A stretch of 32,000 nucleotides of DNA from Candidatus Saccharimonadota bacterium (GTDB lineage Archaea > Micrarchaeota > Micrarchaeia > Micrarchaeales > Micrarchaeaceae). Both the position numbers and the translations under genes were made by a program. Below the pieces are notes generated by a model, which did no database searches, was not told the DNA's origin, and worked only from the letters and a program-made list of their open reading frames with translations. The DNA lies in assembly GCA_963698035.1 (NCBI GenBank), contig OY969114.1, positions 150,001 to 182,000 on the forward strand, written 5' to 3'. Position 1 is the first letter of the stretch; each line of letters begins with the position of its first letter. This document shows, piece by piece, positions 170 through 17,074 of the stretch.

Positions 170-183
170 TTAAGTTAATTGCT
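170..183. repeat. Left copy of the 14-bp target-site duplication (ttaagttaattgct)
   Basis: Identical 14-mer in direct orientation at 16160-16173. Each copy directly abuts the outer end of a TIR. Confidence 0.9.
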
Positions 184-271
184 GGGATATATACTATCTC
201 TTAAAAACTAGAGTCCTATAAAATAACTTTTACATATGTTATAGACCTAGAGGAAAAACTAGAGTGTTCTC
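184..271. repeat. Left terminal inverted repeat (88 bp), starting gggatatatactatctc
   Basis: Its reverse complement matches 16072-16159 at every position (checked base by base). It contains an internal 12-bp direct repeat aaaaactagagt at 203-214 and 254-265. Confidence 0.97.
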
Positions 272-1044: not shown

Positions 1045-2865
1045 CTACCCATAAGTTAAAGTTGGATCTCCATAAAGCTGCAATTCTTGTGCGGTATCTC
1101 TCTGCAGCTGAGTGGGCGAGTTAGTTAAGAAGTTCCGTTTCATCGAAAGAAAAGCTTGACCTATAGTTTCGCCAGATTTAAATTTATTGTATATGTACTC
1201 TAGATTGGTTGGCGTATAACCTCCAAACCCTTCTTTAGTGTTACCTATATAAGCGGATGCTCCATCCTCTAGCATTTGCAAAGCAAGCGGAGTTGTTCCG
1301 CCGGGTATAAGATAATAGTACAAGGTAGTATTGCTTGGTTCTGTAATCCCATCATAACATGCGGCTGATAGTATTATTGGATTTGTATTAAGTTGTGGTA
1401 TACTTGAAGCAGACCAATAGAGAAAAGTGGAAAGAGTAGTATAATTGCCTGACCACGTACCACAAGAGTATCCGCTACCGTGGCAGTCATAATATTGGAT
1501 TCCGTACACAGAGGATATGTCAGTTTGAAAGTTTGAAGCGCTTGTGCAGCTCGATCCTAAACAGTAAGGTGGAACACTAAGGCAATTAGAGTTACTTGCA
1601 CATGAACTGCCTGTTGTGACTTCTGAAAAAGTATTTACGTCACCTCCAATGAAGGAGTCATGCTGATCATTTAATTCATCTCCAGATATCAGTAGATTAT
1701 TATTGGTCTCCGAATGCCTTTTTGTATCGTTTGATAAGATAGAGGCAATCTCATCAGCATTAGAACCTGGAATTCGCGCAACCACTATTGTTGGAACGCT
1801 GCTATTCGTTAAACTTCCATACGGGTCGTCGGTTGGTATGATGTATGAATTATACCCACTGTCATCTACATTTACTCCTAACGAAGAAATGGTTGGCATT
1901 GGTACAATATTTTCATTACCCAAGATAATTAGATAAGTTGCATTGGTCAAGTATTCTATTCTGTTTATTGTTGATTTAACGCTAACCCAACTGTTCGCAT
2001 TCATGTTAGGATTATATGAACTCAAATTTACATACACATAGCTTAAGCCTTCAGAAGTCAATACACTTTCATAACTAGACAGGGCATTTATGTAGTTAGA
2101 ATCCTGATTAAAGTTAGAACCTATTGTTACAATTACAACATCTTTATGACCAAAACTGTTGTTATATTGAGGGATTGTTGTAGTTGACTGTTGTACAATA
2201 GTAGACTGCGAACCTATGGTTGTCGGCGGAGGAGCGCAGGTGTAACTACCACTTGCACTTGCTATAACACCATATTGGCAGGTCGTACAGGCCGTACCTA
2301 AACCTAATTTCCATACGCCAGTCGCATTCTGGATGCATGGACAGAATGACTGGCCTACCTGAACTTGTGTGTTAGGAGTACACTGATTAGCTGGTTTACT
2401 CACAACATTAACTTGTGCAGTAGAGCTTCCTCCTCCGTTAGAATCTGTTACAGTAACCGTACACTGTTGATTTATCGTCTGATTTGCTCCAGATGTGTAT
2501 ATTGGTATATTTATCTCTTGGTTCTGGCCTGCCGGAACGCTGTATTTTTGTGAACTTACAGTGCTTACCCCCGCGCAATCGCTCAGACTATAGTAAAAGG
2601 TTCCTTGCGAAGTTCCTATATTCTCAACATTAACGTCTATACTTCCGTTGGCCCCAGAACTAAACGGGGCCGAAGTTGCAGACAATATCTTTGGTATACC
2701 TTTTGGTATCACAACTCCAATAAAACTTCCCTTCACTCTTAGTGTAATTTCTGGGTTTGTTGTAGTAAATGCTGTTGGTATAGTTACAAGAAATGCTTGC
2801 TGACCTCCATAATTACTAATCTGTGGTTGCGATGAAGCACCATATACCGTAGCGGTACTTTGCAA
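1045..2865 (-). CDS. Secreted-type protein with a CARDB-like domain and a clan-CD (gingipain/C25-like) peptidase-like domain; no recognisable signal peptide
   Basis: IDVNVENIGTSQGTFYY...CTVTVTD resembles CARDB. YLIILGNENIVPMP...IPTDDPYG, then His-Gly (YYDCHGSG) before Ala-Cys (ILSAACYDG), and a C-terminal LQLYGDPTL resemble C25 peptidases. The only start codon after the upstream in-frame stop is TTG at 2865. Confidence 0.65.
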   Translation of the reverse strand: MQSTATVYGASSQPQISNYGGQQAFLVTIPTAFTTTNPEITLRVKGSFIGVVIPKGIPKILSATSAPFSSGANGSIDVNVENIGTSQGTFYYSLSDCAGVSTVSSQKYSVPAGQNQEINIPIYTSGANQTINQQCTVTVTDSNGGGSSTAQVNVVSKPANQCTPNTQVQVGQSFCPCIQNATGVWKLGLGTACTTCQYGVIASASGSYTCAPPPTTIGSQSTIVQQSTTTIPQYNNSFGHKDVVIVTIGSNFNQDSNYINALSSYESVLTSEGLSYVYVNLSSYNPNMNANSWVSVKSTINRIEYLTNATYLIILGNENIVPMPTISSLGVNVDDSGYNSYIIPTDDPYGSLTNSSVPTIVVARIPGSNADEIASILSNDTKRHSETNNNLLISGDELNDQHDSFIGGDVNTFSEVTTGSSCASNSNCLSVPPYCLGSSCTSASNFQTDISSVYGIQYYDCHGSGYSCGTWSGNYTTLSTFLYWSASSIPQLNTNPIILSAACYDGITEPSNTTLYYYLIPGGTTPLALQMLEDGASAYIGNTKEGFGGYTPTNLEYIYNKFKSGETIGQAFLSMKRNFLTNSPTQLQRDTAQELQLYGDPTLTYG

Positions 2866-2873
2866 AAGTTGAG

Positions 2874-4238
2874 TTACGGCTTGGTTATTGTTGTTAAGAT
2901 CTTGGTATTTTTCAGATGCTTTTGCCTTCCAACAGGACTGAAGCGTATTGCCGACTTTATCTTCGGAGTTTTACCTGTCAATAGCTTGGATAATAGGATA
3001 CTCGGAAGCCCGTAGTATAGCGTTTCCTTTGATGATATATAGTTAAGTCCAACTGTGAAAATCTCATTATAAGCTGCCCTTACTGGTAGTAGGTCATCAT
3101 CTGGCTCAATTTCAACAATAACACAGAATTGTTTCCATTTTTCTAGATTTCTCAGATCATCTAATTTTATTTCGTCTACTAATTTCCGCACGTTTACAGT
3201 ATCATCAACATATTCTATCCTTTCGGCTATGAGGAAATCATACAGCCCCAGCAAAGTAAAAAGACTAGGGTACATGCTTGTAAAATCAAGCGCCGTAACG
3301 AGGCAGGGTTGTTTTCTGATTCTAGCTTCTACTCTCCCGCCATAATAAGCTTGTGATATTTTTCCATATATCGAAGCTGGGACATCAGGATTAAGCACCA
3401 TATAAGGAGTTATGCCAAGCTCTTCAAGAAATGCCTTGCCAATTGAAGCAGAAGAAAAGACGTTAGGTAGCGGTAATTTTACTCCAAATCTATCATATTC
3501 ACTTTTCAAGTGTGTGAACAGCTCGGCAGTAGCCAAAGTGTCCTTTATGTTGTATGCTATGTACTCTTTTGTTATCTTTCCATGCTCTCCGGCCTCGAGT
3601 TTGTAGTATTTCTTATTCCATCGCTCGGCAGCCCGTTTCAAGGAGATATGTTTATCATCAGAAAAAATAATCGCCAGGTTTTGGCAATCGATAAAGTATC
3701 CACGAACTTTTTTAGCGTATTTCGTGGTATGGAATTCTATGCAGGATTCTGCGGTGTTAATGTGCTTTAGTCTAATTGCCGGATGCTTATCTTGTTTACT
3801 GAGTTTGAGTGTGAAGCCACCATTCATCCAACCTCTTGCATAACCATAATTTATAGTTAATCGGGATAAATCAAACGGTAAATTGAAGCCTATGCATGGT
3901 ACTTCGTCCTTATGGACTGTTGGATAAAAAACAGTTTCAAGAAACGTCTCCAGGTCGTATAATCTTATAGTGGGATCATGATTGCAGTAGCTTTGCAATA
4001 CCTCAAGTTCATTTTTAGTAACTTCAACTGGATTATAAAATAGCCCTAACTTCTCTACTATTTCACCACGCATGATAACAAATGATCCAAACGTAAGTGC
4101 CTGGCGGGGGTCGGTTCGAGTTTCGCAGTCAAAGGAAAAGATTCTTTCATAGCTTGGTACACTATATCGCCTTGGCTTGTCTGATCGTGGCTTGTTGTTT
4201 TTCTTTTTGACGTTGAATGCTCTAAAGGCTACTTCCAT
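2874..4238 (-). pseudogene. polB: Protein-primed family-B DNA polymerase, C-terminally truncated: exonuclease domain and motif A only
   Basis: ExoI FSFDCETRTD, ExoII GFNLPFDLSRL, ExoIII YNIKDTLATAELF and motif A LDFTSMYPSL are present. The ORF ends about 125 aa after motif A. Motif B (Kx3NSxYG), motif C (YxDTDS) and KxY are not found in this ORF or in other frames downstream. Confidence 0.8.
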
Positions 4239-4524
4239 GCTTATCCATTCCCCGTTTCTTAAGCCGTTTACCTATCAGTTCAAGCAACGAGCCAATTGAG
4301 ACATCTTCAAAGTCATGTTTATCTTCAGGACTAGCTTTTCTGCTTCTAGCTTTGGGTGGAAAAGCGTTTTGATCGGAGGTTATTTTCCGGTGGCAACAGA
4401 AACAAAGAAGGATTTTTGTTTTGGGGTCGTTTATACGGCCATACGCGTGATGGTACTCACCTAAAACTCTTGGATCTGATTCTTGGCATATAGCACAACT
4501 TCTCTGAGAGGTTTCAGCAAGCAT
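4222..4524 (-). CDS. HNH endonuclease
   Basis: CAICQ...EYHHAYGR...LLCFCCHRKIT fits the CxxC...HH...CxxCH pattern. It overlaps both neighbours, which suggests translational coupling within an operon. Confidence 0.8.
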   Translation of the reverse strand: MLAETSQRSCAICQESDPRVLGEYHHAYGRINDPKTKILLCFCCHRKITSDQNAFPPKARSRKASPEDKHDFEDVSIGSLLELIGKRLKKRGMDKHGSSL

Positions 4525-5092
4525 ATATCTCTCCTCCGAATTCTTGCTCGCGACTTAACTCGATCTCCTTTATCTGCTCTATTCTAGTCTCCAAATGGTG
4601 CTTTTTGCCTTCGGCATCAATGATCACCCTTTTCTTGTACTTTTCAAGAAGGGTCAGGTCACCAGAATATTCTAAAAGCTTCTTAGTATCGTTGAAGTAT
4701 GCCCCTATCAGGTGAGCCATCTCCGAGCCTCTTATAACCACGCTTCTTACCCTGCCTCTCTCGTATATGACAAGGCCTCTTTCGATCCAATCCTGGGGCT
4801 TGGCTTTCCAGCGTCCCTTTCTCTTGCGCAGGTAGCCCCTTAGCTGGGCTTTTACGGTCCGGGGGTCTATTCCCACCTGCCGTGAAGCAATGGTCAAATA
4901 ATGACCATTCCTCACAAGCCGGATCACTTCCAGAGCCCTTACGCGCAGTTCCTTCTCTTTAGGGCTTAACGTGTTCCAGGGCTTAGAGGAGGCAGAGAGG
5001 CGTTTTAAGCCTCTCTTGCGCCTTTTAGGCGTCGACGACATCCTCATCTGCACTCTCTTCGTCCTTTTCGTTCTGTTGCAAGGCCTGTTCAA
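4514..5092 (-). CDS. HTH DNA-binding protein, a casposon-associated type
   Basis: Basic N-terminus followed by LTIASRQVGIDPRTVKAQL (helix-turn-helix). The true start is probably the internal Met at 5047 (MRMSSTPKRRK), because the upstream part overlaps the RHH gene. Confidence 0.6.
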   Translation of the reverse strand: MNRPCNRTKRTKRVQMRMSSTPKRRKRGLKRLSASSKPWNTLSPKEKELRVRALEVIRLVRNGHYLTIASRQVGIDPRTVKAQLRGYLRKRKGRWKAKPQDWIERGLVIYERGRVRSVVIRGSEMAHLIGAYFNDTKKLLEYSGDLTLLEKYKKRVIIDAEGKKHHLETRIEQIKEIELSREQEFGGEIYAC

Positions 5093-5363
5093 GCAGGCTA
5101 CCTACAACTTCACTTTCTGTGAGGTCGCGGTCCTTTGCCAAAGCCTCGATCTTTTCCTTCAAATCTTTGTAGATGTAGACCGGTGCCCGCCCCTTCGAAG
5201 AGGAGGGTTTGCTTATTTCCTGGTCAGCTGTTACCGAGCCCTCGAGAGCCTCAAAGTAGCTCTCCAGACACATTAGTAACTCCTCTCTTTTCCTCGCAAT
5301 GTGAGGATCTCCCTCTGCATTTTTTCCCGATGACGCAGAAAACATCTTTCTTTTTTGTTCCAT
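5025..5363 (-). CDS. Ribbon-helix-helix (CopG/Arc-like) DNA-binding protein, first gene of the leftward operon
   Basis: PVYIYKDLKEKIEALAKDRDLTESEVVGSLLEQAL fits a beta-strand, helix, helix RHH pattern. The tail is acidic. The start is taken at ATG 5363 (MEQKRKM) rather than the ORF-track start at 5426, which would run through the intergenic palindrome. Confidence 0.55.
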   Translation of the reverse strand: MEQKRKMFSASSGKNAEGDPHIARKREELLMCLESYFEALEGSVTADQEISKPSSSKGRAPVYIYKDLKEKIEALAKDRDLTESEVVGSLLEQALQQNEKDEESADEDVVDA

Positions 5364-5454
5364 TTTATTACCAAGTACATAGTAAAGCTTATTAATTTTA
5401 AACGTACCATTAATGTACGTTATCACAGAAAAGCGTACATATAGGGGAACATTT
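5364..5454. promoter_or_regulatory. Divergent control region between the leftward (RHH-HTH-HNH-PolB) and rightward (wHTH, R-M) gene sets, with a palindromic candidate operator
   Basis: aacgtac-cattaat-gtacgtt inverted repeat at 5401-5421, a further gcgtac at 5433-5438, and A/T-rich TATA-like tracts (ttaattttaaa at 5390-5400). Confidence 0.35.
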
Positions 5455-6381
5455 ATGAATACGTTCGAACTTTCTAGGATCTTGGAAGATAAGGTCGTTA
5501 GGAAATACGTTGTCTATTTTCTGCCTGGCCCGATAACAATTACCGAGGTAGCGAAAAAAGTTGGTGTTAAGAACAGAAGTAAGCTCACAAATATGATTCG
5601 TAATTTACACGATTATAAAGTGGATAAAAAGCAGTACAGAGCCAAAAATTCGAAGCCTATTCAATTAGCCGGCAGTAGATTAATCAGCGACTATATGACA
5701 GCACTTTTTAAGTTAAATAAAGATGAAAGAGATTCATTAGTTACATTCATATCGAACGTTACAATAAAGGAAGAAATAATAGACGGTAAAAAGATAATAA
5801 AGAAAGAAAAAACAATCGAAGAATTTTTATTAAAAAACAATAAGGATTTAGATCAACTTCTAAATAAACTGATCTTATGGATTTTTAAAGTAGATACGAT
5901 AACAAAAATGTCTAATATTATTGATCCGGTCTATGTATCTGATTTTGATTCATTGCTTTATGAAGATTATCAATCTCCAGATCCAGAACGAGAATTAGAC
6001 ATAAGAAAGAAGAAACTGGATCTAGCAGTCATAAATAGGAGAAAATGGAAAAAAGCGAGGACTTTAAGACAGGAGATAATGGACTTAGAAATGGCACCAA
6101 GACGAGAGAAATCGGAACTAGAAATAGCTCTAACAGAGTTTGCTAAGCATAATACAAAAGGATTTGCATTTATCAATAAGATAATCAAATCGGACATAAC
6201 TACTTCTATCGGGATCAAAAACCTCTATGAATTAATATATGGAAACTTAAAAGGTTATGAAAAAGAACTAAAGTTTAGACTTGCAATATATGAACGTTTA
6301 ATGAAAGATGACAGTTTGATATATGACCCATATACTCGCATTATTCAAAAAAGAACTGATTTTAGGAAAAGAAGGATCTAG
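5455..6381 (+). CDS. Hypothetical Lys-rich protein with a possible N-terminal winged-helix domain
   Basis: ATG 5455 is preceded by tagggg. PITITEVAKKVGVKNRSKLTNMIRNL resembles a wHTH. The rest is coiled-coil-like with low complexity. The ORF-track start at 5413 lies inside the palindrome. Confidence 0.55.
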   Translation: MNTFELSRILEDKVVRKYVVYFLPGPITITEVAKKVGVKNRSKLTNMIRNLHDYKVDKKQYRAKNSKPIQLAGSRLISDYMTALFKLNKDERDSLVTFISNVTIKEEIIDGKKIIKKEKTIEEFLLKNNKDLDQLLNKLILWIFKVDTITKMSNIIDPVYVSDFDSLLYEDYQSPDPERELDIRKKKLDLAVINRRKWKKARTLRQEIMDLEMAPRREKSELEIALTEFAKHNTKGFAFINKIIKSDITTSIGIKNLYELIYGNLKGYEKELKFRLAIYERLMKDDSLIYDPYTRIIQKRTDFRKRRI

Positions 6382-6512
6382 AAGTGAGGCATCTCTGAGC
6401 TCCTCTTCCCTGTTGGACATCTTATTACTACTTTTCTTTGTTTTACTCCCTATCTAGGAGTTCATTTAAGCTTTACGCACATATGTTTATGAGTATAATA
6501 AAGGGGTGTAGA

Positions 6513-9248
6513 ATGGCTACAGAAGGATATAATCTAAGCGAGAAGGAAACGCGAAATAAGATTATTGATCCACAACTAAAAGGAGTCGGGTGGGCTAGTC
6601 GCTATTACAAAGAAGAAGTGAATCCAGTAAAATCAGATATAAAAAACAAAGATTATGTTTTGTTTTCTGGAAATGTCGAAAGAAATGTAGATCTGTTTAT
6701 TGACTATTTGTTGCTTGCCGAAGATTATACGCCCTTAGCTATTATTGAAGCCAAAAAATATTCCAAAGATCCGGAAAAGGGACGGATACAGGCTAGAAGT
6801 TATGTAAAAGAAATAACTTCAAAAACAGGGTATAAAATACCAATTTTCTTAACCAATGGACAGACTTGGAAGATAATAGACCAAGACGGTATAGAAAGAG
6901 ATGTGAGTGGGCCTTTTTCGCAAGACGATTTGAAAAGAAGACATGAATTATATCTGGGTCGAAAGCGACCTACCGAGATCAAGATAAATCTTAAAATTGT
7001 AGATAGGCCGAGAAACGCTACAAATGTTAAAAAATTGAGCGAACATTTCGAGTCTGGTCAACGTTCAGCTCTAATCCAAATGGCTACTGGAACAGGAAAG
7101 ACACGCGTCGCTATGGCCATTATTGACATTTTAAAAAATGCGAATTATGTCCGTAATGTACTATTTATCGCTGATCGAACTGCACTTGCAAATCAAGCGA
7201 AATCAAACGGATTCAAGAAATTTTTCAGCGAACCTGTTGGAGACTTAAGAGAGGGTAAGGGAAAAATTAGTAGATTCTACGTTACAACTGTTCAGACTTT
7301 AACAGCAGGAGGCAAAACAAAAAGATATGAGGATTTTAGCCCCGCATTTTTTGATTTGATTGTATTTGATGAAGCTCACCGTTCTTTGTATGATAAAAAT
7401 CATGTTCTATTCAGATATTTTGATTCTATAAAGATAGGCTTAACGGCGACCCCAACAGATCTTGAAACAAGGAATACATATGAATTATTTAACTGTAAAA
7501 ATGGTGTACCAACCGTGGACTACCCCTATGATGACGCTGTGCTAGATAAAGTACTGGTACCATATAGGGGAGAAACAATAGAAACAAAAGTTCTCTCGCT
7601 GGGAATTGAAGGCGCTGAGCTCACTGATGATTTAAAGGACAAGTTAAGGCAACAGGAAGTAAACCCCGAGAGCGTTGTATTTACCGGCTCAGAATTCGAC
7701 CGAATATTTATGGATGATAAAACTAACGAATTAATAATTCAACGCTTCCTTGAAAGATGCTATAAATCAGATGAAGGAAAACCCGCCAAATCTATAGTCT
7801 TCTGTGCAAGTCAACGCCATGCCAAACATATGAAGAAGATTTTCAATAATCTCTTTCCTCAGTTAAGCAGTGATGTCCAGGTTATTACTTCTGAAATGGA
7901 TAGAGCTGAGGATGAAGTTAGGCGCTTTAAAAATGAATCAGAGCCTAGAATCGCGCTATCTGTAGGAATGCTGGACACAGGAGTAGATATCCCAGAAGTA
8001 TGTAATTTGGTGTTCGTTAAACCAGTTTTTTCAGCTGTAAGGTTCTGGCAGATGGTAGGAAGAGGCACTAGAAACCGGGTTGCGTGTGACCATCCAGAGT
8101 GGCTTCCAGAAAAAAACAAAAAAGATTTTATGATATTAGATTTCAAGATTGGCGGGCACTCAAATATAGAATATCATAAATTCAAGATTAATAAAGAAAG
8201 CAAAACTGTAGACATGATGACCCGTATCTTCATAAATAGAGTTAAACTGCTAAATAAATCACTAGATAAATCACAGCGAGCAATTATAATAAAGAAAATT
8301 CTCGAAGATATTGGATCTTTAAACAAGAATTCATTTATAGTTAGGGAAAAAATACAGATAATAAAGAAAATTGAATCTGACTCATTCAACCTAGAAAAAT
8401 ATATTGAAGAACTTAATAACGAAATAGCCCCCTTGATGATATTGAAACAGGGTACAAATCCTTATACTACTTCGTTCGTTCTGAATTCAGAGAAATTATT
8501 TGCACTTATTTTAGATAGGGATAATGATAAAATAGAAACTATTAGGATTAGTGTTCTTGAACCAATGATAGAAAATGTAGCTAGGAGAAACAATTTAACA
8601 GAGGTCAAGGAAAAGGCTAACGCTCTGAAGACAGTTCTTCAAGATGAATTCTGGGATGACTTAACTTTCGAGAAGACCGAATTCCTAATAAAAGAAATTG
8701 CACCCCTAATGAAGTACTATAGCCCTGATCCACGAAAAATAGTTCAAGTAGATGCGCTGGACATAATAACAGATGTGCAAGGATTTGAAAGAGAATTAAA
8801 GGAAGATGAAGATTTAAAGAAACTGATAAAGGAGAATCCGCTAATTAAAAAATTGAAGAATGGAGAGGGGCTAACAGCTGACGAACTAAGGCAGCTTGTA
8901 GATATCTTTCAGAAAATCAAGCCGGAAATCAGCATTCCTAATATACAGCAAAGTTATGGCGAAGATTTTATGTTATTCCTTCATGAGGCTATAGGGTTAT
9001 CAAAAACTTACGACCCTAAAGAATTAATTGAAAGGCAATTTGATAATTATATTCTAAAGAATAGCCATTACAATTCTAAGCAATTGGAGTTCTTGAATCT
9101 TTTGAAAAAAGTGTTTGTAGAGCAAAAACAGATTTCAATAGAAGACTTTGGCAAATCCCCACTAGCAGATGAACGACCACTTGATTTGTTCGAAGAGAAA
9201 CAATTGAAAATAATAGTTAAAAACTGTAATAGGATTAAATTTAAATAA
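6513..9248 (+). CDS. hsdR: Type I restriction enzyme R subunit (DEAD/DEAH helicase-nuclease)
   Basis: N-terminal SEKETRNKIIDPQL..GW (HsdR_N). PD-(D/E)xK motif IDYLLL...AIIEAKK. Walker A QMATGTGKTRVA. DEAH box VFDEAHRS. Motif VI QMVGRGTR. ATG 6513 is preceded by aaagggg. Confidence 0.9.
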   Translation: MATEGYNLSEKETRNKIIDPQLKGVGWASRYYKEEVNPVKSDIKNKDYVLFSGNVERNVDLFIDYLLLAEDYTPLAIIEAKKYSKDPEKGRIQARSYVKEITSKTGYKIPIFLTNGQTWKIIDQDGIERDVSGPFSQDDLKRRHELYLGRKRPTEIKINLKIVDRPRNATNVKKLSEHFESGQRSALIQMATGTGKTRVAMAIIDILKNANYVRNVLFIADRTALANQAKSNGFKKFFSEPVGDLREGKGKISRFYVTTVQTLTAGGKTKRYEDFSPAFFDLIVFDEAHRSLYDKNHVLFRYFDSIKIGLTATPTDLETRNTYELFNCKNGVPTVDYPYDDAVLDKVLVPYRGETIETKVLSLGIEGAELTDDLKDKLRQQEVNPESVVFTGSEFDRIFMDDKTNELIIQRFLERCYKSDEGKPAKSIVFCASQRHAKHMKKIFNNLFPQLSSDVQVITSEMDRAEDEVRRFKNESEPRIALSVGMLDTGVDIPEVCNLVFVKPVFSAVRFWQMVGRGTRNRVACDHPEWLPEKNKKDFMILDFKIGGHSNIEYHKFKINKESKTVDMMTRIFINRVKLLNKSLDKSQRAIIIKKILEDIGSLNKNSFIVREKIQIIKKIESDSFNLEKYIEELNNEIAPLMILKQGTNPYTTSFVLNSEKLFALILDRDNDKIETIRISVLEPMIENVARRNNLTEVKEKANALKTVLQDEFWDDLTFEKTEFLIKEIAPLMKYYSPDPRKIVQVDALDIITDVQGFERELKEDEDLKKLIKENPLIKKLKNGEGLTADELRQLVDIFQKIKPEISIPNIQQSYGEDFMLFLHEAIGLSKTYDPKELIERQFDNYILKNSHYNSKQLEFLNLLKKVFVEQKQISIEDFGKSPLADERPLDLFEEKQLKIIVKNCNRIKFK

Positions 9249-9250
9249 TA

Positions 9251-9280
9251 TCTACAAATGTAGACATATATATTTATAAA
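9251..9280. promoter_or_regulatory. Perfect palindrome tctaca-aa-tgtaga directly upstream of a TATA box (tttataaa); candidate operator and promoter of the RHH-hsdS-hsdM unit
   Basis: Palindrome at 9251-9264 and TATA at 9273-9280. The ATG at 9303 sits about 23-30 nt downstream, which is leaderless-type spacing. A third half-site tctaca lies at 9321-9326. Confidence 0.4.
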
Positions 9281-9302
9281 CCTTAACTCACTAATCCTTA
9301 TT

Positions 9303-9677
9303 ATGGAATATAGAACCGTATCTACAAGGCTCTCGATTGACGAGTTTACTCTCATTAATGACTATTGTAAACGAAAAAGCATCAACCCATCAGCACTAAT
9401 AAAAGAACTCATCTTTGATGAGATAACTCCGTCTATCCCAGCACATATCGCAGGGAAAAATATTATCGAATACGATAAGAAAAAAGACTCCTTTTCTTGG
9501 TGTATTGAGCTAGATAGTGGTGAGCGCATTACAGCCATTAAAAGCATCTCGCCCGAATATATGAGAGATTTGTGCGGTGCCCTCGCAAGCGCTTTAACTT
9601 CAAGGAATGAATCACAAGGTAAGAAAAGAAGGGGTTCCGTCCCTGTACCTAAAAAAATAATCAAGGGGAGAAAATGA
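9303..9677 (+). CDS. Ribbon-helix-helix protein embedded in the R-M operon; candidate controller
   Basis: RTVSTRLSIDEFTLINDYCKRKSINPSALIKELI fits the RHH pattern. Its stop overlaps the hsdS start (ATGA at 9674-9677). Confidence 0.6.
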   Translation: MEYRTVSTRLSIDEFTLINDYCKRKSINPSALIKELIFDEITPSIPAHIAGKNIIEYDKKKDSFSWCIELDSGERITAIKSISPEYMRDLCGALASALTSRNESQGKKRRGSVPVPKKIIKGRK

Positions 9678-10837
9678 AATTTGACTACGTACAGTTAACG
9701 AATTATTTTGATATAGTTAGCCCTGGCATAAAACCATTCAAGGGAAATAAAAAATATATTGCAACTGGTTCGATGGAAACGGGCGAAATTGTGGGTTTCG
9801 ATCAAGTTAGCTATGAATCCAGACCAAGCAGGGCCAATATGGAGACTGTTGAAGACGATATACTGTTTGCTAAAATGAAAGACACCGAAAAAGTTTTCAT
9901 TATCACAAGGAAAGAAACCGAAAATATATATTCTACCGGTTTCAGTATCTTGAGAGTACGAGACCGAACGCAATTTGAACCTAAATTTGTCTACTATTGG
10001 TTGCGATCAGACGCTTTTAAGAGAGTTAAAAACCGAGATTCTACAGGTGCTACACAAAAAGCTCTAAACGAAGGCAGGCTTGCTAAATTCAGAATACCAA
10101 AACCTCCCCTAGAAACCCAAAAGAAACTTGTTGTGATATTTGAGAAGGTAGATAAACTAATAGAATTGCGACTAGATGCAGATAAACTAACTGACGAGTT
10201 CTTAAAAAGTGTTTTTTATGAAATTTTTGGAGATCCTGTTAAAAATACCAAAAAATGGCCTTTAAAGAACCTTAAGGAATTTGGGAAAATAAAAACTGGA
10301 AATACCCCTCCAAGAAAAGAACTAAACTATTATGGGGATTTTATAGATTGGATTAAATCAGATAACCTAAATACACCTTTTACATATTTGACACAAAGTG
10401 AAGAAAAGCTATCTCAAGATGGTGCAAAGGTTGGTAGAATAGCTCCAAAAAGGTCGGTTCTGGTAACTTGTATCGCAGGTAGTTTGTCCGCAATAGGTAA
10501 TGCCGGGATCGCCCAAAAAGATGTTGCGTTTAACCAACAGATCAATGCTATTATACCAAATACGGAAGTAAATGAGTTATTTTTATACTACTTGCTGGTG
10601 AACTCCAAAACTTATATTCAAAGTTTTTCTACACACTCAATGAAAGGGATGATTAGCAAGGGGGTATTTGAAAAAATTAGTCTAATTTATCCAGCGTCCA
10701 AGCTTCAATTTAAATTTGGGGAAATAAGTCAAAATATAGAAATGATGAAAGATAAGCAAAATGAATCTAAAAAACAGATTGATTATTTATTCAAAGCCTT
10801 AATACAAAATACGTTTAGAGGTGATTCACTATGTTAG
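9674..10837 (+). CDS. hsdS: Type I R-M specificity subunit
   Basis: Two target-recognition halves are separated by a conserved helical spacer (PPLETQKKLVVIFEKVDKLIELR). The C-terminal conserved region is QIDYLFKALIQNTF. It overlaps hsdM by 7 nt. Confidence 0.88.
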   Translation: MKFDYVQLTNYFDIVSPGIKPFKGNKKYIATGSMETGEIVGFDQVSYESRPSRANMETVEDDILFAKMKDTEKVFIITRKETENIYSTGFSILRVRDRTQFEPKFVYYWLRSDAFKRVKNRDSTGATQKALNEGRLAKFRIPKPPLETQKKLVVIFEKVDKLIELRLDADKLTDEFLKSVFYEIFGDPVKNTKKWPLKNLKEFGKIKTGNTPPRKELNYYGDFIDWIKSDNLNTPFTYLTQSEEKLSQDGAKVGRIAPKRSVLVTCIAGSLSAIGNAGIAQKDVAFNQQINAIIPNTEVNELFLYYLLVNSKTYIQSFSTHSMKGMISKGVFEKISLIYPASKLQFKFGEISQNIEMMKDKQNESKKQIDYLFKALIQNTFRGDSLC

Positions 10838-12318
10838 ACCAAGAATTAAAAAGTAAAATAAATAAGTTGTGGGATAAGTTTTGGAGTGGTGGTATCTCAA
10901 ATCCACTCATGGCAATCGAGCAAATTTCGTATCTACTTTTCATAAAACGCTTAGAGGATGAAGATGTTCTAAGGCAACAGAATGCAAGACTTACCCGAGA
11001 GCATTATGCCTCTATCTTCCAAGGAAACAGTGATTGCAAGTGGAGTGTCTGGACCGAATATTCTGCAGATAAAATACTGGATCATGTGCGCACTAAGGTA
11101 TTTCCATTCCTAAAAAGCCTTGGCGAAAAGGATTCTCTGTACAATCAATACATGCAAGATGCCGTTTTTGTGATTCCTACTCCGTCAGTGCTTATCGAGG
11201 CCGTGAAAATTATAAATGAACTGAAAATCAAGGAGCAGAATCGTGATACGCAAGGAGACATATACGAGTATCTTCTTTCAGAATTGACAACAGCAGGTAA
11301 AAACGGACAGTTCAGAACTCCACGTCATATAATCAAGATGATGGTGGAGTTATTAAACCCGAAATTTGGTGAGAACATCTGTGATCCGGCGTGTGGCACA
11401 GCTGGTTTCCTTGTTATCGCGTATGAACATATTCTGAAGCTGAATACCTCAAAGGATTTGATAAAGAAAGATGACGTTGGAAATGAATATGGTTTCAAGG
11501 GAGACAAGATAAACTCTACACAATGGGAGATTTTACGCAAGGAAACATTTTATGGTTTTGATATCGATTCAACAATGGTAAGAATTGCGCTCATGAATCT
11601 TATGATGCACGGAATAGATTATCCAAACATAAAACAAATGAATAGTTTATCCACCCGATATACTGAAAATAATCAGTATGATGTAGTCTTGGCAAATCCT
11701 CCATTCAAGGGTAGTATCGACGAATCTGAACTCAGTGATCAGCTTACTATAAAGACGACAAAAACTGAGGTTCTTTTCTTGGAGTTAATGAACCGGGTAA
11801 TGCGTATTAGTGGGAGGTGCGCAGTAATAGTGCCGGATGGTATTCTTTTTGGTGGATCAAAAGCTCATAAACAAATAAAGCAAATGCTTCTAAAGAAATG
11901 CAGGCTAGACGCAGTTATCTCAATGCCTTCTGGTATTTTCAAGCCTTATGCAGGGGTTTCTACAGCTGTACTTGTATTTACAAAGGGGGAAGAGACAAAG
12001 AAGGTCTGGTTCTATGAAATGACCTCAGACGGTTTTACTCTTGATGATAAACGCACTCTCATTGACGGAAAAGGTGATATCCCGGATATAATTGAGAAGT
12101 TCAAGAGACGCGATAAGGAAAGATTTGATGATAGAAAAGCAAAATGCTTCTTCATCCCAATTGAGGAAATAGAAAAAAATGATTTTGACCTTAGCATCTT
12201 AAAATATAAAGAAATTGAACATAAAGAAGTTAAATATGAAAAACCTCAAGCTATAAAGAAGAAAATATTAGAATTAGAGGAGGAAATTATTAGAATTGGA
12301 AACGAAATAGATGTCTAA
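10831..12318 (+). CDS. hsdM: Type I R-M N6-adenine DNA methyltransferase subunit
   Basis: HsdM_N-like N-terminus (LWDKFWSGGISNPLMAIEQISYLLFIKRL), GQFRTPRHI, SAM motif I DPACGTAGFL, and catalytic motif IV LANPPF. Confidence 0.93.
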   Translation: MLDQELKSKINKLWDKFWSGGISNPLMAIEQISYLLFIKRLEDEDVLRQQNARLTREHYASIFQGNSDCKWSVWTEYSADKILDHVRTKVFPFLKSLGEKDSLYNQYMQDAVFVIPTPSVLIEAVKIINELKIKEQNRDTQGDIYEYLLSELTTAGKNGQFRTPRHIIKMMVELLNPKFGENICDPACGTAGFLVIAYEHILKLNTSKDLIKKDDVGNEYGFKGDKINSTQWEILRKETFYGFDIDSTMVRIALMNLMMHGIDYPNIKQMNSLSTRYTENNQYDVVLANPPFKGSIDESELSDQLTIKTTKTEVLFLELMNRVMRISGRCAVIVPDGILFGGSKAHKQIKQMLLKKCRLDAVISMPSGIFKPYAGVSTAVLVFTKGEETKKVWFYEMTSDGFTLDDKRTLIDGKGDIPDIIEKFKRRDKERFDDRKAKCFFIPIEEIEKNDFDLSILKYKEIEHKEVKYEKPQAIKKKILELEEEIIRIGNEIDV

Positions 12319-14801: not shown

Positions 14802-16022
14802 TTATAATTTGCCCATTACTTTGTTGTAGATTTTTATCCTCTTACCCTCTCGTATATTCTTTTGTATGTACCATAGCGTAGATTTATTTATTCCTAACTT
14901 TTTACGCTCTTCTGGTGTTATCCCTAGTATATCTTCCTTCACGTTAGTTGAGTCGTTACGTTTTAGTTTTATCTCTGGCAATGTGAAGACCAAGCCTGCA
15001 GCCTTGCCTTGGATATGATTGCTTAGCGCCCTCAGGTTCTCAAAGATCAAGACCTGGTTCTTGTAGCTAGCGTTCCTATGAGTTGTGGTCTCGTTGAAAT
15101 TTATCCTCAATTTCTCGATTAACCTCTTTGCTGTGCCTTCACGAAGTCGTATATGGAAGTTCTCAGTCACGATGAACGATGACTTCTTCAGGGCCTTCTC
15201 CTCAAGTAGCTGGAGAACGGACATGTCAACAAGCCACCTGTACAGCTCCTGGAAGTCATAAACCAAGGGCATCTTGCTCGAGCTTGCTTCATGTAGGAAC
15301 CCTATCGATGGGTCCAGGCCAATGGAGTTTATTGATCGTCTTACCTCACTCTCGAGTATTGAGTAGCCGTAATTAAGCAACGCATTTACCTCGTCCGAGG
15401 CATGCATATTGTGATAAAAACTCTTGTTCTTGCGGCTCTGGAAATTGAATTCAGGCGCGGCCTGCCTGAACACCTTGGCCATCTGCTCCCAGTAGATGTT
15501 GGCCATGCGTGCCTCGTACAGCATCAGGACATTAAGCTTGTTTTTGATTGTCTTGGCGCGCCTTATATCCCTATAGTAGGCATTGAACTCAGTGCTTGAA
15601 CTGATCTTGATGTGCTCCTTATCCAAGACCGTGTAATAAGCAGACAGCTCTTCCAAGAATTCAAGCTCGGACTCAACCTTGCTTTCTATGATTGATAAAG
15701 CTATCTTATACCGCCATGCATCATCCAGGTACGCTTTGTACTGATCCAGCTTCAACTTCCCGGAGATTGGTTCCTTTGGCATGGTTGTACTCAGGAGATT
15801 CCCGTCCCAGTTTAACATGATAATCGGTATGTCATGCTTCATCAGCCATCTTGAGGCATCAAACGAGATGCAGCCGCTATGACCGTCTATTATCACGGAA
15901 TCATAATGGATCTGGTGCGGGTAAAACTCTAGTTTAGTATTCTCAAGCTTATTGGTAATAGTAAGCCTGCGCTGGTCTACATTGATAGATGTTCCAAATC
16001 CAGAGATTAATAATGGATTCAT
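14802..16022 (-). CDS. cas1: Cas1-family integrase (casposase) with a C-terminal HTH
   Basis: N-terminal Cas1 beta domain (LLISGFGTSINVDQRRLTI...DSVIIDGHSGCISFDASRWLMKHDIPIIML). Catalytic-region motifs are LMLYEARMANIYW, NALLNYGYSILESEV, LDPSIGFLHE and LVYDFQELYRWLVD. The C-terminal HTH is GINKSTLWYIQKNIREG. It lies 50 bp inside TIR-R. Confidence 0.92.
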   Translation of the reverse strand: MNPLLISGFGTSINVDQRRLTITNKLENTKLEFYPHQIHYDSVIIDGHSGCISFDASRWLMKHDIPIIMLNWDGNLLSTTMPKEPISGKLKLDQYKAYLDDAWRYKIALSIIESKVESELEFLEELSAYYTVLDKEHIKISSSTEFNAYYRDIRRAKTIKNKLNVLMLYEARMANIYWEQMAKVFRQAAPEFNFQSRKNKSFYHNMHASDEVNALLNYGYSILESEVRRSINSIGLDPSIGFLHEASSSKMPLVYDFQELYRWLVDMSVLQLLEEKALKKSSFIVTENFHIRLREGTAKRLIEKLRINFNETTTHRNASYKNQVLIFENLRALSNHIQGKAAGLVFTLPEIKLKRNDSTNVKEDILGITPEERKKLGINKSTLWYIQKNIREGKRIKIYNKVMGKL

Positions 16023-16060
16023 TCATAGCACCTTTTGTCGAGATAATATCGACGTCAAAG

Positions 16061-16068
16061 TATATAAA
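16061..16068 (-). promoter_or_regulatory. Candidate TATA box (tttatata on the minus strand) for cas1, just inside TIR-R
   Basis: It lies about 40 nt upstream of ATG 16022. A small palindrome gtcga-n7-tcgac (16037-16053) sits between the TATA box and the start codon. Confidence 0.3.
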
Positions 16069-16071
16069 TGA

Positions 16072-16159
16072 GAGAACACTCTAGTTTTTCCTCTAGGTCT
16101 ATAACATATGTAAAAGTTATTTTATAGGACTCTAGTTTTTAAGAGATAGTATATATCCC
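16072..16159. repeat. Right terminal inverted repeat (88 bp)
   Basis: Exact reverse complement of 184-271. Confidence 0.97.
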
Positions 16160-16173
16160 TTAAGTTAATTGCT
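16160..16173. repeat. Right copy of the 14-bp target-site duplication; overlaps the last 4 nt of tRNA-Glu
   Basis: ttaagttaattgct is identical to 170-183. Its innermost 4 nt (16170-16173) encode A70, G71, C72 and A73 of the tRNA. Confidence 0.9.
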
Positions 16174-16244
16174 CCGATCGGGATTTGAACCCGAGTTTCA
16201 GCCTTGAGAGGGCCGTGTCCTTGACCGAACTAGACGATCGGGGC
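16170..16244 (-). tRNA. tRNA-Glu(CUC), 75 nt, CCA not encoded
   Basis: Manual cloverleaf: acceptor GCCCCGA/TCGGAGC (one C3-A70 mismatch), D stem GTCT/GGAC, anticodon stem CGGCC/GGCTG, loop CTCTCAA, T arm TCGGG-TTCAAAT-CCCGA, discriminator A. Confidence 0.85.
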
Positions 16245-16276: not shown

Positions 16277-17074
16277 CTATTTCCTTATCAGCCGTTTTCC
16301 TATCTTGAAGCTGACGCTGCCGTTGGAGAGCTTCTCGCTTACGAACTCAGCGAGGCCCATGTCCTCCGATTCCGACACCGCGACTATCTCGTTGACGAAG
16401 AGCTCCTTCACCATCTCGTCGCCTTCCGGATTTATCACCCCGTTGCCTATCCTCATTATAAGCGATTCCACCTCAGCCATTGAGAGGGATAACCTTGACA
16501 GCGCAGGCTCCCCTGCGCCCTTCAAACCCATGCCCTGCTGCAGTATCTCTATCTTCATGGCTGCCCTGCTCTTCTCGTAGAGGAACCTCACGGGCATCGC
16601 GTGCAGGCTCCTTACTATGGTCGAATAGACCTGGCTTCTCCTCTCTCCGCGCTCCGCCATTATCGCCGGCATGAGCAGAAGGTTGTTCTCTGGCTTGACC
16701 CTCCTGCCTGCAGATCCATTTGAATGGCGCTCTATGTATGCGGACCTGTTTGCACCGTTTATGGTGTAGAAGAGGCTAACGTAGGAGTGCGCCGCAGATG
16801 TTATTGCGGAAAAAAGACCCGATGGCCTGGTCTGCTCATCCGACCCGTAATCCGATGCCAGTAGATATAGCATTGAGAGATGCTTCGCCAGTCCGCTTAT
16901 CCTCTTCCTGGTGTTCGCACTCCTCGCTTCGGCCTTTATGGACGGGTCGGCCATCGCGTGCGATATCGCGTAGAGCATGCTTTTCACCGGAAGCATGTTC
17001 GCGCCCTTCCTCATCTGGACAGGGTCAGCCCTGAAGGTTATCGATTTGGGTGCGCTAGCGCTGGTCCTCTGCAA
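16277..17074 (-). CDS. Hypothetical protein
   Basis: Long ORF with host-like composition. The ORF-track start at 17074 is TTG, and the first ATG is at 17014 (MRKGANMLPV). No motif recognised. Confidence 0.55.
   Translation of the reverse strand: MQRTSASAPKSITFRADPVQMRKGANMLPVKSMLYAISHAMADPSIKAEARSANTRKRISGLAKHLSMLYLLASDYGSDEQTRPSGLFSAITSAAHSYVSLFYTINGANRSAYIERHSNGSAGRRVKPENNLLLMPAIMAERGERRSQVYSTIVRSLHAMPVRFLYEKSRAAMKIEILQQGMGLKGAGEPALSRLSLSMAEVESLIMRIGNGVINPEGDEMVKELFVNEIVAVSESEDMGLAEFVSEKLSNGSVSFKIGKRLIRK

Follow-up and report, generated by a model that had tools for sequence, protein, structure and literature searches.

The stretch of DNA analyzed here, referred to as the window, is a 32,000-nucleotide segment (positions 150,001 to 182,000 of the forward strand of contig OY969114.1, assembly GCA_963698035.1) of a genome deposited as Candidatus Saccharimonadota bacterium and placed by GTDB within the archaeal Micrarchaeaceae. 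It contains a casposon, a transposon with a Cas1-family integrase (casposase), whose integrase gene is the subject of this work. The element is 15,976 bp long and is bounded by perfect 88-bp terminal inverted repeats (TIRs) and by a perfect duplication of the target site (TSD), 14 bp in length, at the 3' end of a tRNA-Glu(CTC) gene. The casposase gene lies at the inner edge of the right-hand repeat, and no other gene in the casposon's right part is on the minus strand, as the initial annotation had described. The genome is represented by a single contig of 776,853 bp that is 95% complete. The features that define the gene, the element and its target are the following (window positions; HTH, helix-turn-helix; ORF, open reading frame):

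14802..16022, minus strand: casposase (Cas1 homolog with a C-terminal HTH), 406 aa, an uninterrupted ORF of 406 codons starting MNPLLISGFG
15246..15515, minus strand: catalytic codons E170 (15513-15515), H244 (15291-15293), D256 (15255-15257) and E259 (15246-15248), invariant columns in alignment A2
14850..14954, minus strand: predicted C-terminal HTH, residues 357-391, three helices with pLDDT of about 80-87 in the full-length model
170..183, no strand: TSD, left copy, 14 bp, identical to 16160-16173 and directly abutting the left TIR
184..271, plus strand: left TIR (TIR-L), 88 bp, 88/88 complementary to 16072-16159, tip GGGATATATAC
16072..16159, minus strand: right TIR (TIR-R), 88 bp, 88/88 match to TIR-L
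16160..16173, no strand: TSD, right copy, 14 bp, reading AGCA + ATTAACTTAA on the tRNA strand
16170..16244, minus strand: tRNA-Glu(CTC) found by ARAGORN, the integration target, its last 4 nt lying within the TSD

The start of the ORF, MNPLLISGFG, is typical of the family, and the 406-aa product matches the Pfam model Cas_Cas1 over residues 4-305 (E 2.8e-57). The motifs on which the initial annotation relied were all found, with YEARMANIYW at residues 168-177, GFLHE at 241-245, VYDFQELYRW at 254-263 and GINKSTLWYIQKNIREG at 377-393. We aligned the protein with 29 homologs of 53-79% identity (alignment A2, 30 sequences) and E170 (within YEARMANIYW), H244 (within GFLHE) and D256 and E259 (both within VYDFQELYRW) are invariant columns with no catalytic substitutions, in agreement with the claim of an intact catalytic signature. 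The same motifs align to VEG, GFLHE and YDLQE of the Methanosarcina mazei (M. mazei) casposase, which is the best solved relative by PDB sequence match (6OPM chain A, E 2e-65, residues 2-398, the tail included). The alignment-based AlphaFold2 model of the window protein (mean pLDDT 84) predicts an N-terminal beta domain, a helical catalytic domain, a linker and three helices. When this model was compared with solved structures using Foldseek, the 6OPM chains ranked first (TM 0.84-0.89 normalized by target), ahead of the CRISPR Cas1 structures, and the identity to 6OPM in the structure-based alignment is approximately 32%. The gene is under purifying selection, because comparison with a 78%-identical relative gives a pN of 0.116 against a pS of 0.89, which is saturated.

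The NCBIfam generic cas1 model TIGR00287 also recognizes the protein (E 1.8e-50, residues 4-340), with a score of 171.9 bits that exceeds its cut-off of 71.7. A match to this generic cas1 equivalog is what would be seen if the gene were an orphaned CRISPR adaptation Cas1, the remnant of a lost CRISPR-Cas locus with no role in a transposon, but several lines of evidence make this origin hardly credible. All the CRISPR-subtype-specific Cas1 models score far under their own cut-offs on the 406-aa ORF, a perfect TSD and perfect TIRs surround the gene, its product has the HTH tail of casposases, and the tree described below groups the protein with casposases and not with the Methanocaldococcus/Methanothrix Cas1 rows. 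The genome also lacks the expected partners. The absence of cas2, cas4 and a repeat array, initially claimed for the 32 kb, extends to the whole genome with the exception of one sub-threshold Cas4-family match of 15.3 bits, approximately 73 kb away. We found a single Cas1 match in the entire 776,853 bp, no Cas2 match at E <= 0.1 and no CRISPR-like array in the form of a run of at least three exact 20-mers at a spacing of 45-110 bp. Among the 30 related genomes searched, Cas1 was found in only one (G016, discussed below). Because of the TIR, TSD and tRNA setting, the match to the M. mazei enzyme and the lack of Cas2 or an array, we regard the gene as a casposase and not as a CRISPR adaptation Cas1.

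The G+C content is 31-45% within the casposon versus 49-57% outside, and on the tRNA strand the junction reads ...GGAGCA / ATTAACTTAA / GGGATATATAC..., so that the TSD consists of AGCA followed by 10 AT-rich bases. The transferred 3' end of the casposon reads ...TATATATCCC, and its 3'-terminal TATATCCC is the same as that of the M. mazei casposon end used in 6OPM (PMC6977970). No further copies of the TIR were found elsewhere in the genome. Because both the TIRs and the TSD are perfect, the insertion appears to be young.

Two additional observations concern the ends and their surroundings. Within each 88-bp TIR, AAAAACTAGAGT occurs twice in direct orientation at a distance of 50 bp (204-215 and 254-265, with a mirrored pair in TIR-R), and the unrelated TIR of the casposon encoding a 78%-identical casposase (L003) likewise holds two copies of ATTTCACCCAT; these repeats may be subterminal protein-binding sites. 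On the host side, an ORF of 265 aa (16277-17074, minus strand) lies next to tRNA-Glu; it has no Pfam match and is kept beside tRNA-Glu across the family, with matches in 14 of the 18 family genomes searched.

The initial annotation had further proposed that the Cas1 core is followed by a C-terminal extension with an HTH. The extension is present, comprising approximately 65 residues past the Cas1 core (residues 341-406) that align with the tail of the M. mazei casposase. In the AlphaFold2 model it contains helices at residues 357-366, 370-376 and 380-391, with a turn formed by G377-I378-N379 and a third helix, the putative recognition helix KSTLWYIQKN (KSTLWYIQKNIR), and the predicted tail thus shows the classic pattern of a helix, a Gly-containing turn and a recognition helix. 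The full-length model has a three-helix unit of the HTH type, but fold searches with the isolated domain returned no significant match. Using a model of the isolated tail (AlphaFold2, pLDDT 69), Foldseek found no match below E 2.5 in the PDB, and the best hit of VIA-align among 48,161 chains was an unrelated enzyme (Z 4.8), with small HTH proteins (Pf4r, the AcrIIA15 N-domain and the MuB N-domain) reaching a Z of only 2.5-3.0. Pfam gave no match on the tail of the window casposase and weak HTH_psq matches in 4 of 21 relatives. In a profile comparison with hhalign, the tail does match the last ~50 residues of the family B DNA polymerase (PolB, 902 aa) encoded by a related casposon (probability 93.8%, E 1.8e-7), and family 2 has been described as having an HTH on the casposase and a similar HTH at the C-terminus of PolB (Krupovic et al. 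2014, PMC4046053). In 6OPM the tail is disordered, and its deletion abolishes integration (PMC6977970). We assigned the tail as an HTH because of the topology of its helices, its homology with the tail of the M. mazei enzyme and the hhalign result. The suggestion that such a tail distinguishes casposases holds in that CRISPR Cas1 proteins lack it; however, the tail marks family 2 and not casposases generally, since the characterized family-1 casposase, with 347 aa, has no HTH (PMC8464041; PMC4046053).

The homologs of the protein support the same placement. The closest entry in a large protein database (P0002) is 78% identical and comes from a metagenome-assembled genome (MAG) of the Micrarchaeaceae, while all others are at most 60% identical; their sources include Micrarchaeota, Nitrosotalea, Nitrosopumilus and a MAG labelled Marsarchaeota, and each is approximately 400 aa long with full coverage. 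A scan of species-representative genomes separated two classes, the first of ~390-430 aa with 34-58% identity and the tail covered, the second thaumarchaeal, of ~350 aa with 26-30% identity and ending before the tail. The second class includes a protein of Ca. Nitrosotalea devanaterra, for which family-1 casposons have been published (PMC6563490). In a quick maximum-likelihood tree, with SH-aLRT as its only support measure, the window casposase belongs to an HTH-bearing clade of 35 rows (97% support) where it pairs with the casposase of L003 (100%; L003 and L004 are the same element), and the two are placed with weak support among other rows from Micrarchaeota and Nanoarchaeota. The ~350-aa thaumarchaeal clade is separate (100%), and the bacterial rows and the CRISPR-type Cas1 rows, including those of Methanocaldococcus/Methanothrix, lie apart from the HTH clade.

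Some of these data could be taken to indicate a casposase of family 1, the thaumarchaeal family with a protein-primed PolB. The nearest named homologs include Nitrosopumilus and Nitrosotalea proteins with 52-56% identity, and the fragment of PolB carried by the element weakly matches Pfam DNA_pol_B_2 (PF03175, E 2e-8). A family-2 casposon is, however, already known in Nitrosotalea (NitNCS1-C1), and the published family-1 targets are mainly the aEF-2 gene and not tRNA genes (PMC6563490). Furthermore, the family-2 PolB of A. boonei falls in a divergent group related to both the main and the protein-primed PolBs (PMC7544198), and the weak PF03175 match is therefore not diagnostic. Given the HTH, absent from the characterized family-1 enzyme, the tRNA target and the separate clade of ~350-aa proteins, Ca. 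N. devanaterra included, with only 26-30% identity, we rejected membership in family 1 as highly improbable. We assign the ORF to family 2 on the basis of its match in the PDB, its HTH, the tRNA gene used as target and published work, and we consider it very probable that its product is a casposase of the family-2 type that serves a 16-kb casposon as its Cas1-family integrase.

The same searches gave two observations on other genomes. The chromosome of a Nitrosopumilus MAG (OZ252092.1) has three HTH-type casposase genes (L016, L017 and L038), and two of these, L017 and L038, are 189 kb apart and almost identical (branch lengths of 0.005 and 0.002), which suggests recent transposition. Two archaeal-type casposases were found on short contigs in bacterial MAGs: a protein 55% identical to the window casposase on an Acidobacteria MAG contig (L033), and a protein inside the thaumarchaeal ~350-aa clade on a Chitinophaga MAG contig (L067). 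Mis-binning is the likely origin of both, with a transfer into bacteria as a possible one.

Related casposons occupy the same kind of site. The genome G016, from another genus of the same family, contains a 9.8-kb casposon (L093 = G016:C4:9001-29000, 2277-12140) at the 3' end of the same tRNA-Glu(CTC), with 31-bp TIRs (GGGGTTATATATAAATC...), the TSD AGCATCTGAATATA, a 399-aa casposase that is 57% identical to that of the window and a full-length PolB of 902 aa with a C-terminal HTH. In a Micrarchaeota MAG, a casposon (L008) is inserted at tRNA-Glu(TTC) with the TSD AGCATGCTGAACAA. A third genome, G006, belongs to the same genus as the window and has tRNA-Glu(CTC) with the same neighboring genes, followed exactly 10 nt on by a TIR of the L008 type. 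No partner inverted TIR was found within the 3.3-kb interval, which holds ordinary-looking genes, and no Cas1 was found in the G006 genome; because of these two findings we take the lone TIR to be a leftover casposon end. A second TIR copy lies in G006 44 kb away, in the same orientation and not beside a tRNA, and the two copies (L089, G006:C1:10001-16600, positions 1495-1640; L092, around 1420-1560) look like remnants of lost or rearranged casposons. Five further members of the clade are flanked by tRNA-Pro (two), tRNA-Ser, tRNA-Arg and tRNA-Val; the 10-nt gap is found in three of the five, whereas in the Ser and Val cases it is 7-8 nt by the coordinates of the tool. The definition of family 2 (Krupovic et al. 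2014) includes a TSD of approximately 14 bp that covers the final 4-7 nt of a tRNA gene without disrupting it; the window element has this arrangement, which is also found in G016, L008, L010, L023 and L027. Joining 10 nt past the 3' end of a tRNA gene with duplication of 14 bp is thus a rule common to several independent insertions, and the choice of tRNA-Glu is a property of the lineage. The fresh look of the window insertion and the reuse of the site by related casposons point indirectly to site-specific integration catalyzed by the casposase.

The M. mazei and A. boonei enzymes suggest how this integration would proceed. The casposase would act as a dimer of dimers, using the 3'-OH of the casposon ends (...TATATATCCC-3') for attacks on the two target strands at positions separated by 14 bp. 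The first cut would lie within tRNA-Glu, 4 nt short of its 3' end, and the second outside it, 10 nt beyond that end. Repair of the gaps would then produce the 14-bp duplication and leave the tRNA gene intact. The C-terminal HTH, by analogy with the same two enzymes, would be needed for integration and probably helps to read the tRNA-side "leader".

The initial annotation had also placed a TATA-like box just inside TIR-R and proposed that expression of the casposase may be controlled from the end of the element. The box TTTATATA is present on the gene strand, 3 nt inside the inner edge of TIR-R (16072), and the gene appears to have its own promoter there. Four features lie between this edge and the coding sequence:

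16061..16068, minus strand: archaeal TATA-like box TTTATATA, by sequence reading, identical in L003
16037..16053, no strand: candidate operator, a 17-bp palindrome GTCGATAT-T-ATCTCGAC with one mismatch between its arms
16029..16032, minus strand: Shine-Dalgarno-like GGTG, 6 nt upstream of the ATG, conserved in L003
16022, minus strand: ATG of the casposase

An archaeal TATA box is centered approximately 26-27 nt upstream of the transcription start, and with the box at 16061-16068 the start is therefore expected near 16038, with the palindrome extending from about -15 to +1. This is the position where archaeal repressors block the recruitment of RNA polymerase. The palindrome occurs once in the window. 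In L003 the block from the TATA box to the ATG is almost unchanged, with a perfect palindrome in the same place, and over 30-nt windows it is 90% identical, a level equal to that of the active-site codons, versus 27-57% for the TIRs and approximately 70% on average for coding DNA. The identity of the block does not derive from recent ancestry, since the synonymous sites are saturated and the adjacent TIRs cannot be aligned. The block is probably a constrained, repressible promoter with an operator, and the proposed control of expression from the casposon end gains support from its conservation. Candidates for binding to the palindrome are the HTH of the casposase itself, a 192-aa HTH protein and a ribbon-helix-helix (RHH) protein, the last two encoded by the element as described below. 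The block is not common to the more distant members of the clade, in which cas1 is found in operons or with other upstream motifs.

Upstream motifs of their own were observed in two thaumarchaeal subclades. The Nitrosotalea-type and Nitrosopumilus-type casposases have the conserved palindrome-containing motifs ATCCAAAGATCTTTATGC and CACAAAGTTCTTGTATCAT, respectively, upstream of cas1 (L009, L010, L011 and L014, approximately 60-100 nt upstream of cas1; L012, L016, L018 and L020). To judge from these motifs, palindromes resembling operators may recur at the promoters of casposase genes.

The remainder of the casposon contains its polymerase gene and cargo:

2874..4238, minus strand: casposon PolB gene reduced to its N-terminal half (454 aa), with a product 42% identical to residues 49-470 of the G016 PolB (902 aa)

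The PolB fragment found no match among the PDB sequences. Upstream of it are overlapping small genes whose domain matches all fall under the curated cut-offs, namely ORFs of 100 aa (Endonuclease_7, E 0.057), 192 aa (HTH_23, E 0.0095) and 133 aa (RHH, E 0.07-0.11). A type I restriction-modification (R-M) system, a protein of 820 aa, a fusexin-like fragment and a protein with a zinc ribbon make up the cargo. The ORF on the downstream side of the truncated PolB (606 aa; 1045-2865, minus strand) shows a partial match to the NCBIfam model Fsx1 (fusexin 1), which pairs residues 32-239 with profile positions 299-518 (E 4.2e-16) and is far below the curated cut-off.

Because PolB is truncated, this copy of the casposon probably cannot replicate itself even with a working integrase, although it may be integrated or excised by its own casposase. 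The truncation is one of several points that weigh against our interpretation, as it may indicate a dead copy in which the integrase is intact only through the recency of the insertion. The conservation of the promoter and operator is based on two elements only, and the TATA-palindrome block, searched for as an exact pattern, had no match in metagenome contigs. The family-2 references of A. boonei (AciBoo-C1) and M. mazei (MetMaz) were left out of the tree. Finally, the details of target recognition cannot, judging by the residues concerned, be transferred from the M. mazei structure. In that enzyme the sole base-specific contacts to the target come from R191 and R192, which read CGCA; the corresponding positions are Y203 and H204 in the window casposase, within a loop predicted with low confidence (residues 199-205 of the AlphaFold2 model), and S/W in most members of the clade. 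It is this replacement, in a low-confidence loop, that precludes the transfer.

The first of these points can be extended into an explanation in which the gene is the integrase of a dead element, intact because it is recent, either not expressed or not functional, and in which the conservation upstream of the gene reflects recent common ancestry or an inner transposase-binding site and not a regulated promoter. In addition to the truncated PolB, this explanation draws on the single copy of the casposon in the genome, the rarity of Cas1 among the related genomes and the comparison of the promoter in only two elements. It is opposed by the perfect TIRs and TSD, which indicate a young insertion, by the low pN against a saturated pS, which indicates long-term purifying selection on the lineage, and by the finding that the M. 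mazei and A. boonei casposases carry out integration in vitro on their own (PMC6977970). With the synonymous sites saturated, recent ancestry also cannot explain 90% non-coding identity beside TIRs that cannot be aligned. We consider a dead element unlikely and retain the family-2 casposase, transcribed from its own putative promoter, as the preferred interpretation.

The closest of the known systems is the family-2 casposon of M. mazei (MetMaz1FA1A3-C2, 6OPM; Hickman et al. 2020, PMC6977970; Krupovic et al. 2016, PMC4779613), whose casposase gives a full-length alignment including the tail and is the best structural match. Both have a solo Cas1 without Cas2, and the M. mazei element likewise has a 14-bp TSD in which 10 AT-rich bp follow the final 4 bp of a tRNA gene, as well as the end 5'-TATATCCC (PMC6977970). 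They differ in the target, which is tRNA-Leu (CGCA...) in M. mazei and tRNA-Glu (AGCA...) here, in the TIRs, which measure from 31 bp upward there versus 88 bp here, and in the host, which here is a member of the DPANN archaea (Micrarchaeota) with a truncated PolB in its casposon. The family-2 casposons AciBoo-C1 (Aciduliprofundum boonei) and NitNCS1-C1 (Ca. Nitrosotalea okcheonensis), compared here through relatives and the literature, also have an HTH-fused casposase of approximately 400 aa (PMC4046053, PMC6563490) and are inserted at the 3' end of a tRNA gene, but that of tRNA-Pro in both. Nitrosotalea-type casposases are 52-56% identical to that of the window. The core set of these two elements consists of PolB and, upstream of it, HTH proteins, together with an HNH-like nuclease; the family-2 definition of Krupovic et al. 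(2014) names an HNH endonuclease and two HTH proteins. Here the HNH nuclease has a counterpart only in the weak Endonuclease_7 match (E 0.057); the type I R-M system in the cargo is a further difference.

Outside family 2, the family-1 casposon of Ca. Nitrosopumilus koreensis AR1 is similarly bounded by TIRs and site-specific, with a short TSD of 13 bp, but its casposase of 347 aa lacks an HTH and it has a protein-primed PolB and an aEF-2 target (PMC8464041). That casposase is approximately 26-30% identical to the one in the window and falls in a separate clade. CRISPR Cas1 proteins, such as that of Archaeoglobus fulgidus (4N06), share their two-domain fold and all four catalytic residues with the window casposase; in contrast to it, they have no HTH tail, work with Cas2 and target CRISPR repeats, and neither Cas2 nor an array was found in this genome.

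The window element is thus a new example of a kind of transposon already described and not a new system, and the findings leave the known picture of casposon function unchanged. The machinery that integrates CRISPR spacers is believed to descend from casposons and, to our knowledge, only two HTH-tailed casposases have been studied biochemically; we know of no experimental work that addresses casposase regulation. In the papers that we searched, no casposon is reported from Micrarchaeota or any other DPANN archaeon. The element provides a clean natural example in such a host, with perfect ends and a perfect duplication, and what is modestly new is the recurrent tRNA-Glu target, the replacement of the target-reading residues and the conserved promoter and palindrome. 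A bolder proposal, which we regard as speculative and rather doubtful, is that the palindrome is an operator used by the casposon to repress its integrase, possibly with the casposase HTH as the binding domain, and that this, together with the lost target-reading arginine pair, marks a family-2 sublineage specific to Micrarchaeota or DPANN that homes to tRNA-Glu by reading the 3' portion of the tRNA gene in a different way than the M. mazei enzyme. The conserved promoter and palindrome offer a direct handle on casposase regulation, and autorepression through the palindrome, if true, would be the first regulatory circuit to be described for any casposon.

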